64,000 bases of DNA from Escherichia phage vB_EcoM_JNE01 (OR670491), one strand, 5' to 3'; positions 18,160 to 37,625 are shown, counted from the stretch's first letter. A program made the numbers and translations. Notes: generated from the letters alone by a model not told the origin.

Positions 18160-18280
18160 ATAGGGTGAGGGAACGGCGGCAACTGTTCCTTAATCTCAGT
18201 ATCATGTCGTGAGACATTACGCAAGTTATATCCTCCTGTGCATAGTGCTGGTGGTTATCTCTTGAACCTCATTTTTTCTC
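18160..18280 (+). ncRNA. candidate small non-coding transcript from the orphan promoter
   Basis: inference only: promoter without ORF, internal hairpin ggaacggcggcaactgttcc, terminal T-run. Confidence 0.2.
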
Positions 18281-18345
18281 GTGAACTAAACAGTACTGAT
18301 ATTAACAGAATGGTAGCAGTACTGATATTAATCTAATGCATTATG

Positions 18346-18365
18346 CCACCAGCTTGTGCTGGTGG
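18346..18365. repeat. perfect palindrome ccaccagc-ttgt-gctggtgg (Chi octamer paired with its complement)
   Basis: read directly; contains GCTGGTGG at about 18358-18365. Confidence 0.7.
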
Positions 18366-18376
18366 ATTCCCTCTAA

Positions 18377-18457
18377 CAGTATTCAGTACTACATGATGGT
18401 CTTCATCCTCCTGGGGTAACATAGTGAAGGTTATGATGGCAGTACTGAATACTCCAA
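18377..18457. repeat. 13-bp inverted repeat agtattcagtact / agtactgaatact flanking about 55 bp
   Basis: read directly from sequence. Confidence 0.5.
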
Positions 18458-18479
18458 ACTCAAGATGGATTAAGGGTGT

Positions 18480-18665
18480 AGTACTGACGGATTTTGGGTG
18501 TAGTTACCCTGGATGGATTTTGGACGTAGATATGTCTAGCCCTCCAGAAGTCTGGAAGTAAAGATGGCTATCCATCTAGACGGCTAAACGGCTAGATTTC
18601 TGGATGGCTGGACGTTTGGACGGCTAAACGGCTAAACGGCTAAACGGCTAAACGTCTGGATGTAT
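18480..18665. repeat. iteron-like cluster: TGGATGG / GGACG units, palindrome agatggctatccatct, and ggctaaacg tandem repeat (x4-5)
   Basis: cggctaaacggctaaacggctaaacggctaaacg at about 18620-18655; several tggatgg copies upstream and downstream. Confidence 0.6.
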
Positions 18666-18897
18666 GGATGGCTAAATCAAAATTTTATTTTGTTTTTTCC
18701 AATAGTTCCCCTACCGCGTGGGGATAGTTTCCCCGCAGTATCTGGTGTTAGATTTTTCTGAATCTGGAATCATTATCTTATAAACTGGGGGCAATGTCAA
18801 CGGCCTGGACGGATATTTTTAAAAATTTTTTCAGTACTGAATTTTGGGCGTAACTATGCACCCGGTGGGCTTGAGTCTTTCTCGACTTGATGGAACT

Positions 18898-18925
18898 ATT
18901 ATACAGTACTGAAAAAATAAAGCAA
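18898..18925 (-). promoter_or_regulatory. minus-strand sigma70-type promoter (TTGCTT-N16-TATAAT) reading into a CCCACCGGGTGC box
   Basis: reverse complement reads attgctttattttttcagtactgtataat; box at about 18864-18880 lies about 25 nt downstream on minus strand. Confidence 0.4.
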
Positions 18926-19290
18926 TACCCTGGAAGCAAAAAAGTTTTAATTAATTTGCTTGCTATCCTGGGCCGGACTATGGTACTATATTTCAGTACT
19001 GAGAAAGTGCGTTTACCTGCTAGGGTGCGGGAGTGTATCCTTTTTTTATATCTTGAATTTTGGACGGATCTTCCCACCCCCTGGGGTATCCGCTTTCTCG
19101 CGTCTATGTAGTAATTATACGCTTTTTCAGGATCAAGTCAATACCTAAAAACAAAATAATTGAAAATAATTTAACGCGTTTAAACGGCCCGTAACGCCCT
19201 GGAATGATTAGAATGGTGCAAATGTATAGCTTAGGTGTATTAATGCGTTAGAATGCGTCTGAGGCCGTTTTATGGGGTGTAGTAGTGATT

Positions 19291-19470
19291 TGGTTGATTC
19301 AGTACTGAATAATAGTACTCCTATATAGAAAGATAGTTCCCCTGGATTGATTCAGTACTGAATGATAGTACTGAATAATAGTACTCCTATATAGAAAGAT
19401 AGTTCCCCTGGATTGATTCAGTACTGAATGATAGTACTGAATAATAGTTCCCCTATATAGAAAGAAAACT
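19291..19470. repeat. tandem direct repeat, about 66-bp unit x about 2.5 (gattcagtactgaatgatagtactgaataatagtactcctatatagaaagatagttcccctggatt)
   Basis: near-perfect copies read directly; the minus-strand ORF 19299..19502 with internally repeated peptide is an artefact of this repeat. Confidence 0.7.
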
Positions 19471-19496
19471 ATTTTAAAAGTATTTGTAGAAAGTAC

Positions 19497-19556
19497 TTGC
19501 ACAGTACTGATAAAAGCGTATAATGTTTTACATCGAGAGCGGGAACTCTTCCCGCT
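19497..19556 (+). promoter_or_regulatory. early promoter (TTGCAC-N16-TATAAT) + 5' GC-rich stem-loop (agcggga...tcccgct)
   Basis: first copy of the recurrent promoter/5'-hairpin module. Confidence 0.6.
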
Positions 19557-19579
19557 ACACTTTAAGAGAGATTAATACG

Positions 19580-19942
19580 ATGGCGACTCAAATCACTAAA
19601 ATCATTGCTAACCTGGTTAACTTCCGCGACGATATGAAAGATCTTCCGGCGGCAACGGTTAAAACTCACATTGACGCATACCGCGAACTGATTAAAATGC
19701 TGCCGCTTAAGCGTGAACAATACGCCGCCACCGTGATGCTTGATGCGATGATCCATAAGATGATCGCCAGTGATTTAACGATGGCTTATCAGTATATGGG
19801 TGAATTGTTCGCGGTGTATAGTAAACCAGTACCAGGAATGGAAAGTACAGAAGTATTACACGGTTTAAATTTAAAACAAGATGCATGGGATAATATGCCT
19901 CGTTTCCTGGTATGGGCTGACAGTGGCAAAATTTACGAATAA
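19580..19942 (+). CDS. hypothetical early protein
   Basis: track ORF starts at 19523 inside the promoter; ATG MATQITK preceded by AAGAGAG RBS is at 19580. Confidence 0.55.
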   Translation: MATQITKIIANLVNFRDDMKDLPAATVKTHIDAYRELIKMLPLKREQYAATVMLDAMIHKMIASDLTMAYQYMGELFAVYSKPVPGMESTEVLHGLNLKQDAWDNMPRFLVWADSGKIYE

Positions 19943-19955
19943 GTTAAAAATTAGT

Positions 19956-35671: not shown

Positions 35672-35740
35672 TTGACAAAGTATATCAGTACTGTATAATA
35701 GTTTACATCAAGGGGAGAATAGTTCTCCCCGATACTAAAA
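35672..35740 (+). promoter_or_regulatory. early promoter + 5' stem-loop (duplicate of 35181-35240)
   Basis: read directly. Confidence 0.6.
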
Positions 35741-35752
35741 GGAAACAAAATT

Positions 35753-36025
35753 ATGTCCAGCTACTCCGCTACTATGATCATTAAAGATATGAACGGTAAT
35801 CCTACTTCTGCTGGTGGATCATTTGGAAACATTAATTTAGATGGTCGGTTATCCATGCAATCAGCAATCGATGCAGCGAAAGAAGTTTTTAAGAATGAAT
35901 GTACTGTTAGTAAGCTGGATTATATGGGATTTGCTATCGAAAAAACTAATCGTTTTGTGGACTACAAAAAACCACTGATGATTGATACTAACCTGAAAGC
36001 AAACGAAGTGGAGTACTTATTATGA
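35753..36025 (+). CDS. hypothetical early protein
   Basis: ORF from track. Confidence 0.55.
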   Translation: MSSYSATMIIKDMNGNPTSAGGSFGNINLDGRLSMQSAIDAAKEVFKNECTVSKLDYMGFAIEKTNRFVDYKKPLMIDTNLKANEVEYLL

Positions 36026-36213
36026 CAGTTGAAGAAGTTAAAAAAGTACTGGCAGTACTACGCTATCATAATCATTGTAAGGTGAAGAATGATCCTGATT
36101 ATCTTGATTCATCCCTGGAAGAGGATACACTACAAGCAATAAGCCATATGCAAACATTAGCAAAGCGTATGACCGAAAAGAATAGACCGGACTATATCGG
36201 AAATAAAATTTAA
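36022..36213 (+). CDS. small hypothetical protein
   Basis: ATGA-coupled to upstream gene. Confidence 0.5.
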   Translation: MTVEEVKKVLAVLRYHNHCKVKNDPDYLDSSLEEDTLQAISHMQTLAKRMTEKNRPDYIGNKI

Positions 36214-36299
36214 AAAGTACTTGCATTGTAGTTAGATTAACGTATAATGTTTTACATAGAGCGGGGGAATAGTTCTCCCGCCAGTCCAGGAGATACACC

Positions 36300-36563
36300 A
36301 TGAACACTATCGAAATCACTATCAATGCACACGTATACGACAACGTAATCATGCAAACTACTATGACCGCTAATGATACCAGTACTTTGCGGAATACTGT
36401 TATTAGTGCTGTATGTGCCGCTATCGGTGATGTCGCCCTGGAAAATGCAAAACACGTAAACGATGGTTTCACTATGTGCAAACGTGATAACGCAAAACAT
36501 ATCATCGTGGAAGGTTACGGCGGTGTAGAATTTAATGTTTATATGAAAAAAGTACTTGCATAA
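36300..36563 (+). CDS. hypothetical early protein
   Basis: ORF after promoter + gcgggggaatagttctcccgcc hairpin. Confidence 0.55.
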   Translation: MNTIEITINAHVYDNVIMQTTMTANDTSTLRNTVISAVCAAIGDVALENAKHVNDGFTMCKRDNAKHIIVEGYGGVEFNVYMKKVLA

Positions 36564-36630
36564 TAACTAAAACAAAGTATAATGTTTTGCATAGGGGGAG
36601 ATATCCTCCCCCACTAAAAGGAGTAATAAA

Positions 36631-36855
36631 ATGGCTAACTTTGATGAACTGATGCGGGAAGTAGCTAACCTGGCAGAAGAGAAGAAATCATTCGATTCTA
36701 TCTATAACACCGCTCACCGTGATTCAGTACTGGCATGTAACCAGGATCAAAAAGATGAACTAATCGCCACCTATCATGAAGCATGGAAGTACTACCGACA
36801 ATGGGAGAAAGAAGAAAGTGAGTCTACCATTGACGGCCTCAATAATCTAATCTAA
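36631..36855 (+). CDS. hypothetical early protein
   Basis: ORF after promoter + gggggagatatcctccccc hairpin. Confidence 0.55.
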   Translation: MANFDELMREVANLAEEKKSFDSIYNTAHRDSVLACNQDQKDELIATYHEAWKYYRQWEKEESESTIDGLNNLI

Positions 36856-36931
36856 AAGTTTTATTTCAGTACTATTGACATAGCTTGATAGTACTGATGT
36901 AATAACTTTACTAACTACAAGGGGAAACATA

Positions 36932-37189
36932 ATGGATCAGTTCACACAATATCGGGTAAATCATCAAGCTATGGCCTACGTAGAAGACCATAAAACGTTA
37001 CCAGTACTGCAACCAGTTAAAGGCCATATCTATCGTGCAATGTCGTGGTGTACGGCCCAGGATGGCTATAAAACCGTAGCCGTTGGTATGTATTGCGGTA
37101 ATGGTGAATGGTTTGATCCAAATAATCCGGTAGCCATTGACAGTACTGAAAAAATGAAATGGGCCGACTACATCGAAGATATTTCATAA
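36932..37189 (+). CDS. hypothetical early protein
   Basis: ORF from track after ttgacatagcttgatagtactg promoter. Confidence 0.5.
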   Translation: MDQFTQYRVNHQAMAYVEDHKTLPVLQPVKGHIYRAMSWCTAQDGYKTVAVGMYCGNGEWFDPNNPVAIDSTEKMKWADYIEDIS

Positions 37190-37206
37190 AAACTATTTGA
37201 CAGTAC

Positions 37207-37265
37207 TAACCAGTAATGTATAATGTTTTACATAGAGCGGGGAATAGTTCTCCCGCCAATAGTTT
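37207..37265 (+). promoter_or_regulatory. early promoter (TTGACA-N16-TATAAT) + 5' stem-loop (gcggggaatagttctcccgc)
   Basis: read directly. Confidence 0.6.
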
Positions 37266-37278
37266 GGAGTAAAACATT

Positions 37279-37479
37279 ATGTCTATCGCTATCGCCCTGG
37301 TTGAAGTACTGAAAGAAGCTAAAGCCAACCAGATCGACGTAAAGATCCAGGAACTACAAAACGGCTTAATCGGCTGTACTTGTACCGCTGGTGGAGCGGC
37401 AGACTATCGAGAACACGAATCACTCGAATCACTGGTTCGGTATCTTACCATGATCGTTGATGATTGGAGAATCATCTAA
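37279..37479 (+). CDS. small hypothetical protein
   Basis: ORF from track. Confidence 0.5.
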   Translation: MSIAIALVEVLKEAKANQIDVKIQELQNGLIGCTCTAGGAADYREHESLESLVRYLTMIVDDWRII

Positions 37480-37486
37480 CAAAAAA

Positions 37487-37625
37487 AGAATAAAAAAAGG
37501 GATTGACTCCGGTCAGTCCCTTTGCTATTATATACGCATAGACAAAAACTAGCCCACAGGGTGCATAGGTGTATCCAAAATATATAGTTAATAACGGTGA
37601 GTAACTATCTGCTGGTGGAACTAAA
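37487..37625 (+). promoter_or_regulatory. repeat module: hairpin with embedded -35, TATTAT -10, CCCACAGGGTGC box, Chi octamer
   Basis: copy of 27451-27560 module; GCTGGTGG at about 37611. Confidence 0.5.

Follow-up and report, generated by a model that had tools for sequence, protein, structure and literature searches.

Host Chi sites are concentrated in the long direct terminal repeat of an Escherichia jumbo phage and of its Rak2-like relatives

The 64-kb stretch of DNA analyzed here (the window), taken from Escherichia phage vB_EcoM_JNE01 (OR670491), carries 13 exact copies of the enterobacterial Chi sequence, 5'-GCTGGTGG-3', all of which are located in the direct terminal repeat (DTR) of the phage genome. 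According to our analysis, the phage is a jumbo coliphage of the 121Q/PBECO4/G17 group (Asteriusvirus): over positions 18000 to 38000 the window is 95% identical to fEgEco12 and 94% identical to vB_Ec-M-J, and the identity across the repeat is 93 to 95%. The left terminus of the DTR lies at 17757, where the window is identical to the first 25 nucleotides of the records of fEgEco12 and vB_Ec-M-J and to which the starting point of several database records is equivalent. The right terminus, at about 38972, was placed by similarity, with several mismatches, to the last 30 nucleotides of the DTRs of relatives (...GGGGTAACCT), and many relatives stop matching the window just short of it. The repeat matches experimentally mapped termini of the long DTR of Asteriusvirus. 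In fEgEco12 the DTR measures 20,993 bp by PhageTerm, backed by restriction digests (PMC13070987), and in Sharanji 20,668 bp (PMC11895373). In vB_Ec-M-J, positions 1 to 21,525 are annotated as DTR, and the first and last 21,525 bases of the 378,573-bp record are identical. The window resembles a junction in which the two repeats are collapsed into one copy, with the right-hand unique end of the genome on its left and the left-hand unique region on its right. The repeat and its Chi sites are as follows.

17757 to about 38972, plus strand: DTR of about 21.2 kb, one collapsed copy in the junction-like window, holding all 13 Chi copies
18247 to 18254, plus strand: Chi in the non-coding leader; lineage-specific gain, only in this window
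18346 to 18365, both strands: Chi/anti-Chi palindrome CCACCAGC-TTGT-GCTGGTGG, with minus-strand Chi at 18346 to 18353 and plus-strand Chi at 18358 to 18365
24583 to 24590, minus strand: intergenic Chi, 6.8 kb from the left end and oriented for RecBCD entry there; lost in 121Q
24645 to 24652, plus strand: intergenic Chi; core site, conserved in five genomes
28851 to 28858, plus strand: Chi in the 3' arm of a terminator-like hairpin at 28836 to 28861 (z -5.1); core site
29361 to 29368, plus strand: Chi in a small open reading frame (ORF), homologue of fEgEco12 g029, read as GCT GGT GG (Ala-Gly-Gly)
30311 to 30318, plus strand: Chi in an ORF, Ala-Gly-Gly frame; core site
31559 to 31566, plus strand: intergenic Chi; core site
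33913 to 33920, plus strand: Chi in an ORF, frame tcG CTG GTG Gaa; core site
35810 to 35817, plus strand: Chi in an ORF, Ala-Gly-Gly frame; core site
37387 to 37394, plus strand: Chi in an ORF, Ala-Gly-Gly frame; absent in 121Q
37611 to 37618, plus strand: intergenic Chi; core site, 1.35 kb from the right end and the outermost copy correctly oriented for RecBCD entry there

Eight of the 13 copies are non-coding, in contexts that include the leader region, the stretch just past a terminator, and a terminator stem, while the five copies in ORFs are read as GCT-GGT-GG in four cases and in the CTG-GTG frame in one. In the DTR of fEgEco12, 7 of 12 copies are non-coding, while non-coding DNA makes up 32% of that repeat (p=0.053). 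The palindrome at 18346 to 18365, a bidirectional Chi, forms a perfect 8-bp stem with a 4-nucleotide loop (z -4.0), lies 0.59 kb from the left physical end, and is kept in five of five Asteriusvirus genomes. The preliminary description of the window had placed several copies in intergenic hairpins or terminators, which is correct for the 18346/18358 pair and for 28851; however, the pairing of 24583 with 24645 is not significant (z -1.4), and only some of the copies sit in such structures. Minus-strand copies at a distance like that of the 24583 site are found in fENko-Kae01 (7.0 kb) and Muenster (6.5 kb), two of the relatives listed below. The copy at 29361 is common to fEgEco12 only, being decayed in vB_Ec-M-J (GCTGATGG) and in 121Q and having no aligned sequence in SD-1_S14.

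The exact search that returned these 11 plus-strand and 2 minus-strand copies confirmed each of the 12 coordinates (10 plus, 2 minus) given in the preliminary description, which had overlooked the copy at 33913, and its statement that Chi is far more frequent than composition would give also holds. In 100 dinucleotide-preserving shuffles of the window, the octamer occurred on average 0.54 times and at most 3 times, versus 13 times in the sequence itself. A stricter background was provided by Markov models of orders 0 to 4, trained on the 21.2-kb DTR itself with the Chi copies masked from training. Under these models, 0.05 to 0.21 copies are expected on the plus strand of the DTR, versus 11 found (Poisson p 1e-16 to 1e-22), and 0.04 to 0.09 on the minus strand, versus 2 found (Poisson p about 0.001 to 0.003). 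Both strands of the DTR are enriched for Chi, by roughly 50- to 200-fold (plus) and 25- to 50-fold (minus). The signal is specific to the exact octamer: every occurrence of GCTGGTG, CTGGTGG, and TGGTGG in the DTR falls within a full Chi, and the repeat contains only two one-mismatch variants. Among the over-represented octamers of the DTR, Chi ranks 14th, the higher ranks being occupied by overlapping words of promoters and of an AGTACT motif. In-register identity between the flanks of the 13 sites is 28%, versus 26% for random pairs, and no extended consensus around the octamer was seen in this comparison. Since the flanks are unrelated, the 13 sites are independent and not copies of one element, and a duplicated intergenic element was rejected as the source of Chi for the same reason.

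The enrichment is confined to the repeat. The remaining 42.8 kb of the window contain no Chi, with no copy beyond 18247 to 37618, so that 13 of 13 copies are located in terminally repeated DNA, the type of concentration described for phage P1, and the same holds in five lineages. In the full genome of vB_Ec-M-J, 11 copies are found in the 21.5-kb DTR versus 23 in the 335.5-kb unique part, which corresponds to a 7.5-fold difference in density. The unique part carries 0.069 Chi per kb, about 2-fold over the Markov expectation, and we attribute this background to a coding effect because 15 of the 23 copies represent in-frame Ala-Gly-Gly codons on the sense strand. Codon usage, accepted as the cause of the genomic background, was rejected as the cause of the copies in the DTR, 8 of 13 of which are non-coding. 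It may be added that between positions 21526 and 357048 of vB_Ec-M-J, Ala-Gly-Gly is written as GCTGGTGG in 15 of 22 cases, versus 24% according to codon usage (binomial p=1.5e-5), an excess which could stem from weak genome-wide selection for Chi or from correlated codon choice in highly expressed genes.

A DTR-confined Chi cluster is present in five genus-level lineages of Rak2-like jumbo phages. The DTRs of distant phages were located by using as an anchor a conserved kinase-like protein (194 amino acids, with a Pfam Pkinase match under the curated cutoff), which is kept in the DTR of most related genera and is a positional marker for the repeat. Counts are given as plus-strand plus minus-strand Chi, and those for flanks cover the examined flanks only.

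121Q (E. coli): homologous block; Chi 9+1; flanks 0
SD-1_S14 (Salmonella): homologous block; Chi 9+2; flanks 0
fENko-Kae01 (K. aerogenes): DTR of 19,736 bp by PhageTerm; Chi 12+2; 2 and 5 in two 30-kb flanks
Muenster (K. pneumoniae): DTR of 20,030 bp by PhageTerm; Chi 7+1; 0 in the next 25 kb
XbC2 (Mimasvirus; recorded host Xanthomonas vesicatoria): DTR of 17,581 bp by PhageTerm; Chi 7+2; 2 in the next 22 kb
XaC1 (recorded host Xanthomonas vesicatoria): DTR of 32,031 bp by PhageTerm; Chi 9+3; 0 in the next 18 kb

Nine Chi sites are kept unchanged across five Asteriusvirus genomes despite divergence of the flanking DNA to 85 to 100% identity. Lineage-specific changes were found next to this conserved set, i.e., gains at 18247 (this window only) and at position 1437 of 121Q (121Q only) and, in 121Q, the losses of 24583 and 37387 together with the decayed 29361. 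The phage fENko-Kae01, which is only about 29% similar to fEgEco12, has a CCACCAGC-N4-GCTGGTGG hairpin 0.48 kb from its left end, the counterpart of that of the window at 0.59 kb, and a single minus-strand gene holds three of the five Chi of its upstream flank. In the same phage, the copies at 3711, 9192, 16840, and 18721 are located between -35-like and -10-like hexamers of apparent promoters read by eye, one of which reads TTGACA-a-GCTGGTGG-gaaattga-GATAAT. Judging from these contexts, Chi seems to have been inserted wherever the sequence is free to vary. Regarding the hosts, the closest relatives of the window phage infect E. coli and Salmonella, in agreement with the enterobacterial host proposed at the outset, and distant ones infect Klebsiella, while two were recorded from X. 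vesicatoria. A scan of IMG/VR for the hairpin CCACCAGC-N4-GCTGGTGG yielded 46 matches, mostly in 20- to 90-kb contigs unrelated to jumbo phages, and was uninformative.

The strand on which RecBCD reads 5'-GCTGGTGG-3' is the one whose 3' end lies at the entry point of the enzyme, so that top-strand copies are active for entry from the right end (PMC12315714). The copies of the window are oriented for RecBCD approaching from their 3' side, from a nearby double-strand end: 11 are active in the right-hand DTR copy, the nearest at 1.35 kb, and 2 in the left-hand copy, at 0.59 and 6.8 kb. The single-strand bias emphasized in the preliminary description exists as a plus excess of 11:2 but was overstated, since the strand asymmetry of the DTR alone predicts 56 to 76% of Chi on the plus strand (p=0.03 to 0.37 for 11:2 with the Chi-masked null) and both strands are enriched. 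As a proof of orientation-specific selection, the bias was weakened by the masked null, and a test of position versus orientation was used instead. When the five lineages were pooled (46 plus, 10 minus), the mean relative position in the repeat was 0.30 for minus and 0.59 for plus copies (stratified permutation p=0.0046); in other words, minus copies lie nearer to the left end and plus copies nearer to the right end, each clustering toward the terminus for which it is in active orientation. This positional signal does not depend on composition and survives the correction. Over the five lineages, 30 of 46 plus copies are found in the right half of the DTR. The plus copies are spread over the whole repeat (Kolmogorov-Smirnov test versus uniform, p=0.085), and according to a hand calculation the outermost of them, at 0.4 to 1.35 kb in the five lineages, are not closer to the end than uniform scatter predicts. 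If Chi is recognized 20 to 40% of the time at each site, which is a textbook range, the cumulative recognition would amount to 91 to 99.6% for 11 sites and 36 to 64% for 2 sites.

The DTR of the window harbors about 55 small plus-strand ORFs and at least 14 perfect TTGACA-16/17-TATAAT promoters corresponding to the sigma-70 consensus, an arrangement that fits immediate-early expression by the host RNA polymerase. The assignment of the Chi cluster to an early region, made before the repeat was recognized, is plausible insofar as dozens of small plus-strand genes follow perfect sigma-70 promoters, but what delimits the cluster is the DTR of about 21 kb, and it does so in five lineages. The few early proteins that can be recognized in the repeat comprise a zinc finger of the DksA/TraR type, a GNAT acetyltransferase, a ParE-like toxin domain, DUF7249, DUF7247, and DUF7217 proteins, and the kinase-like protein mentioned above; examples of the corresponding ORFs are those at 29462 to 29716, 29783 to 30136, and 34149 to 34730. 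Pfam and PHROG scans detected no Gam, gp5.9, or Abc2-like RecBCD inhibitor among 54 DTR ORFs, nearly all of which are of unknown function; this is no proof of absence. The leftmost 1.7 kb or so (17757 to 19500), which is without an annotated gene in relatives, contains three Chi copies, a hairpin at the very terminus (GGCAGAGGAAGTCTGCC, 17761 to 17777), a perfect sigma-70 promoter at 18125 to 18152, and tandem repeats of about 60 bp around 19300 to 19450. The most over-represented octamer of the DTR is the palindrome CAGTACTG, with 41 occurrences versus 4.6 expected, and the 64-kb window contains 307 copies of its core, AGTACT. This palindrome often fills the promoter spacer (TTGACA-N8-CAGTACTG-TATAAT) or sits just upstream of the -35 element (AGTACTTGCA); it also ranks first among the DTR octamers of XbC2, a distant phage, and may be an operator or regulatory motif common to the phage family. 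In addition, a hairpin with a 12-bp stem, AAAGGGATTGACTCCGGTCAGTCCCTTT, is found at 27453 to 27480, 31471 to 31498, 34746 to 34773, and 37496 to 37523, in three identical copies and one variant. Its stem holds a -35-like TTGACT, followed by a TATTAT -10 element, as if the hairpin, in DNA or RNA, gated the promoter. Directly upstream of the right-hand DTR, at about 2000 to 17000 on the minus strand, lies an array of paralogues resembling RCC1 ("regulator of chromosome condensation"), which numbers 14 copies in vB_Ec-M-J; in fENko-Kae01 a similar minus-strand array occupies the corresponding position. The GC content of the DTR exceeds that of the adjacent unique DNA by 3 to 9 percentage points in each of the five lineages: the GC percentages of DTR versus adjacent unique DNA are 38.5 versus 34.6 in the window, 37.3 versus 33.9 in fENko-Kae01, 35.8 versus 27.3 in Muenster, 41.0 versus 36.2 in XbC2, and 37.6 versus 32.0 in XaC1.

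The explanation which we favor, modeled on phage P1 and on the lambdoid phage LLS, and deem reasonably probable in view of the enrichment and its placement, is that selection has loaded the DTR, and essentially only the DTR, with the Chi of the host, so that RecBCD would be halted and RecA loaded within the repeat and the two repeats could recombine. The virion DNA is linear, with an identical repeat of about 21 kb at each end. RecBCD would load on a free end of this DNA and unwind and degrade it inward, where, if it entered from the right, it would meet 11 correctly oriented Chi, the first after 1.35 kb, and, if it entered from the left, the two at 0.59 and 6.8 kb. Chi would then attenuate the nuclease, and RecA would be loaded onto the 3' tail. 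As all this would happen inside redundant DNA, nothing unique would be lost, and the tail could pair with the other DTR copy of the same or of a sister molecule; strand invasion would circularize or concatemerize the genome or prime replication across the repeat. The sharp confinement of Chi would be accounted for because a genome infecting alone would gain nothing from copies beyond the DTR: it finds a homologous partner in the DTR only, and nowhere else is the degraded DNA dispensable. An octamer identical to the host Chi is most economically read, by a wide margin, as having a role related to RecBCD, as already suggested in the preliminary description. The enrichment of the exact octamer, its confinement to the DTR, its conservation in five lineages, and the placement of each orientation nearer to the end from which it is active are seen in the sequences, while we infer that RecBCD is the reader, that recombination is the outcome, that the phage gains in fitness, and that the events take place at injection or at packaging. 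A bolder form of the proposal, which we put forward tentatively and with more doubt than confidence, is that the DTRs of Rak2-like jumbo phages may be Chi-armed sacrificial recombination modules, with host RecBCD, Chi, and RecA, and not only UvsX, being needed to rescue and join the ends in the first minutes of infection.

Several observations weigh against a recombinational role of Chi in the repeat. The literature search retrieved no experiment tying these phages to RecBCD. The genome of vB_Ec-M-J is annotated with a UvsX-like recombinase, UvsY, SbcCD-like proteins, and several exonucleases, and because relatives encode such proteins, the jumbo phages break the published association between Chi richness and the lack of a recombination module. 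The strand bias of 11:2 is largely compositional and not decisive; some Chi sites may be orthologous between genera, which would make the pooled position tests less independent; and the left end has only two active Chi, with a cumulative recognition of about 36 to 64% if each is read 20 to 40% of the time. The DTR of phage T5 contains only two Chi, so that the trait is not required of DTR phages in general. Finally, XbC2 and XaC1 carry the enterobacterial Chi cluster though they were recorded on X. vesicatoria. These two phages had been considered as negative controls for a host-specific Chi, failed as such since both carry the cluster, and became a caveat. RecBCD enzymes from non-enteric bacteria are not generally known to read GCTGGTGG. 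XbC2 shows more than 50% similarity to phages of Cronobacter, Serratia, Erwinia, and Pectobacterium, and its GC content is 37.5%, versus about 65% for the recorded host; XbC2 and XaC1 are both at about 35 to 37% GC and have relatives among phages of Enterobacterales. Their cluster may reflect a recent host jump or a misassigned host, a host enzyme that does read GCTGGTGG, or a reader other than RecBCD, and we think that the host assignment, or the Chi specificity of the host, deserves a second look. XacN1, an unrelated and genuine Xanthomonas citri phage, has no Chi cluster, its 6 copies in 50 kb of DTR at 53% GC being near expectation.

The right-end orientation of most copies can also be read as a sign that Chi acts mainly late, as in lambda, where Chi must be correctly oriented relative to the packaging direction in order to be active and RecBCD enters from the right end. 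Terminase would cut concatemers at the DTR boundaries and hold one end; RecBCD would enter at the free right-hand end and meet the plus-strand Chi, the concatemer would be salvaged by recombination and not degraded, and the plus excess would reflect left-to-right packaging and not injection events. The plus-to-minus ratio of 46:10 over the five lineages and the 30 of 46 plus copies in the right half of the DTR agree with such a role. We nevertheless regard it as unlikely, given that the strand excess is largely compositional, that the conserved minus copies near the left end, the hairpin at about 0.5 kb among them, are left unexplained, and that at this late stage recombination proteins of the phage itself would be present, possibly together with RecBCD modulators. 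Slightly less likely still, in our judgment, is pure shielding, in which Chi would do no more than switch off the RecBCD nuclease near the ends until early proteins are made. The products of RecBCD degradation between a DNA end and the first Chi feed CRISPR adaptation, and shielding would limit the RecBCD-dependent acquisition of CRISPR spacers from the injected ends as a by-product. It is consistent with the confinement of the copies to a terminal 21 kb packed with strong early promoters and with the fact that no known RecBCD inhibitor was recognized in the DTR, yet it predicts copies hugging the ends, and the plus copies are spread across the repeat (p=0.085 in the test given above). Shielding also offers no reason why the enrichment should stop exactly at the repeat boundary instead of tapering, and a resected end would still need repair from the other repeat to give a viable genome.

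The octamer could, in principle, be a cis-element for a phage-encoded factor, common to Rak2-like jumbo phages, involved in repeat-specific replication, packaging, or transcription control, its identity with Chi being coincidental. The cluster occurs in five lineages, including the two phages reportedly from Xanthomonas, and is absent from XacN1, so that the trait tracks the phage lineage and not the listed host. Against this, the prior for a chance match of an arbitrary 8-mer to the host Chi is about 1 in 30,000, the octamer lacks an extended consensus, and it occurs in both orientations and in every context, including ORFs, promoter spacers, and terminator stems. Moreover, all securely assigned hosts (E. 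coli, Salmonella, and Klebsiella) use GCTGGTGG, and XbC2 is akin to Cronobacter, Serratia, Erwinia, and Pectobacterium phages and has a GC content of 37.5% against 65% in the recorded host. We consider a phage-specific element improbable. Least credible of all is a by-product arising without selection for Chi, from GCT-GGT-GGN codons, from GC-rich terminator stems, or from intergenic duplication in a GC-richer region. Most Chi outside the DTR are indeed in-frame Ala-Gly-Gly, the DTR is 3 to 9 GC points above its surroundings, and one copy lies in a terminator stem. However, nulls trained on the DTR expect just 0.05 to 0.2 copies per strand, 8 of 13 copies are non-coding, and the unrelated flanks leave no room for duplication; words with one mismatch are almost absent, gains were independent, and five diverged lineages arrived at the same outcome. 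The by-product account is effectively refuted by the octamer specificity, the Markov nulls, and the unrelated flanks.

The usual picture of RecBCD is that of a first-line nuclease which has to be inhibited or evaded by linear phage DNA. To our knowledge, richness in Chi has so far been reported only for temperate phages (P1 and lambdoid phages) without recombination genes of their own. Enrichment of Chi at the genome ends of P1-like and of some lambdoid temperate phages is already known; what is probably new is a cluster confined to a fixed 17- to 32-kb DTR in a virulent jumbo family with its own recombinases, using the same signal and probably the same enzyme. Our literature search found no paper linking Chi to jumbo phages or to exact long DTRs, and the genome paper of fEgEco12 does not mention Chi (PMC13070987). 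The recruitment of RecBCD by means of Chi, as favored here, would extend to a very different kind of phage and would offer a functional reason for very long DTRs, namely, a redundant buffer in which RecBCD is stopped and redirected. If the repeats did act as sacrificial modules, a family of virulent jumbo phages would depend on RecBCD as a host factor, and the Chi cluster would predict the position and extent of the DTR in unresolved assemblies. From a practical point of view, the cluster is a marker which delimits the DTR in these genomes, most of whose deposited assemblies are without DTR annotation.

Among known systems, T5 resembles the window phage in its genome organization: both are virulent coliphages with a long exact DTR in which small early genes stand behind strong host-type promoters, and the ends of the jumbo phages fall under "long DTR, T5 type" in the PhageTerm classification. 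T5 controls the entry of its DNA in two steps, with the left end entering first, and its pre-early proteins act on host nucleases. It differs in that its 10.2-kb DTR has only two Chi, both plus (8127 and 8689), and no dense cluster, and T5 was therefore rejected as a second example of the trait; its two copies are inactive for the left end and active 1.5 to 2.1 kb from the right end. The E. coli chromosome shares with the window the octamer and its orientation rule relative to a DNA end. Chromosomal Chi are overwhelmingly located in ORFs and attributed largely to codon usage, and the same picture holds for the phage genome outside the DTR; within the DTR, in contrast, most copies are non-coding.

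Closer parallels for the cluster itself are found among temperate phages. Chi-rich lambdoid phages, as a published rule, have no Rec module of their own (PMC12315714; Bobay et al. 2013 cited there), and in one of them, LLS, correctly oriented Chi are clustered at one end and RecBCD enhances growth (PMC12315714). This class resembles the window phage in having Chi beyond chance, mostly in the active orientation for RecBCD entry at the right end and clustered toward that end; it differs in having cohesive ends and no terminal repeat and in being defined by the absence of a phage recombinase or RecBCD inhibitor. In contrast, the jumbo phages encode recombinases, UvsX and UvsY being annotated, and their enrichment is local to the DTR and not genome-wide, the density outside being 0.069 per kb. 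The other close parallel is P1, in which Chi is concentrated in the terminal redundancy, whose recombination requires RecA and RecBCD (bioRxiv 10.1101/2021.07.08.451572, Subramaniam & Smith; PMC12315714, Zheng et al. 2025). In P1 and its relatives P7 and D6, as here, the host Chi is concentrated in or near the terminal repeat, at a density of about 1 per 1.6 to 1.9 kb; it is as frequent in non-coding as in coding DNA, and its proposed role is the recombination of the repeats by RecBCD and RecA after injection. P1 is, however, a temperate, plasmid-like phage of 95 kb, packaged by the headful from pac, with a variable, permuted redundancy of 5 to 10 kb, whereas the relatives of the window phage are virulent jumbo myoviruses with fixed ends and exact DTRs, as determined by PhageTerm and restriction mapping. 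The window phage itself is a virulent jumbo phage of about 350 kb in which the Chi cluster ends at the boundary of an exact, non-permuted DTR of 21 kb, Chi elsewhere in the genome is near background, and the relatives encode a UvsX/UvsY recombinase.

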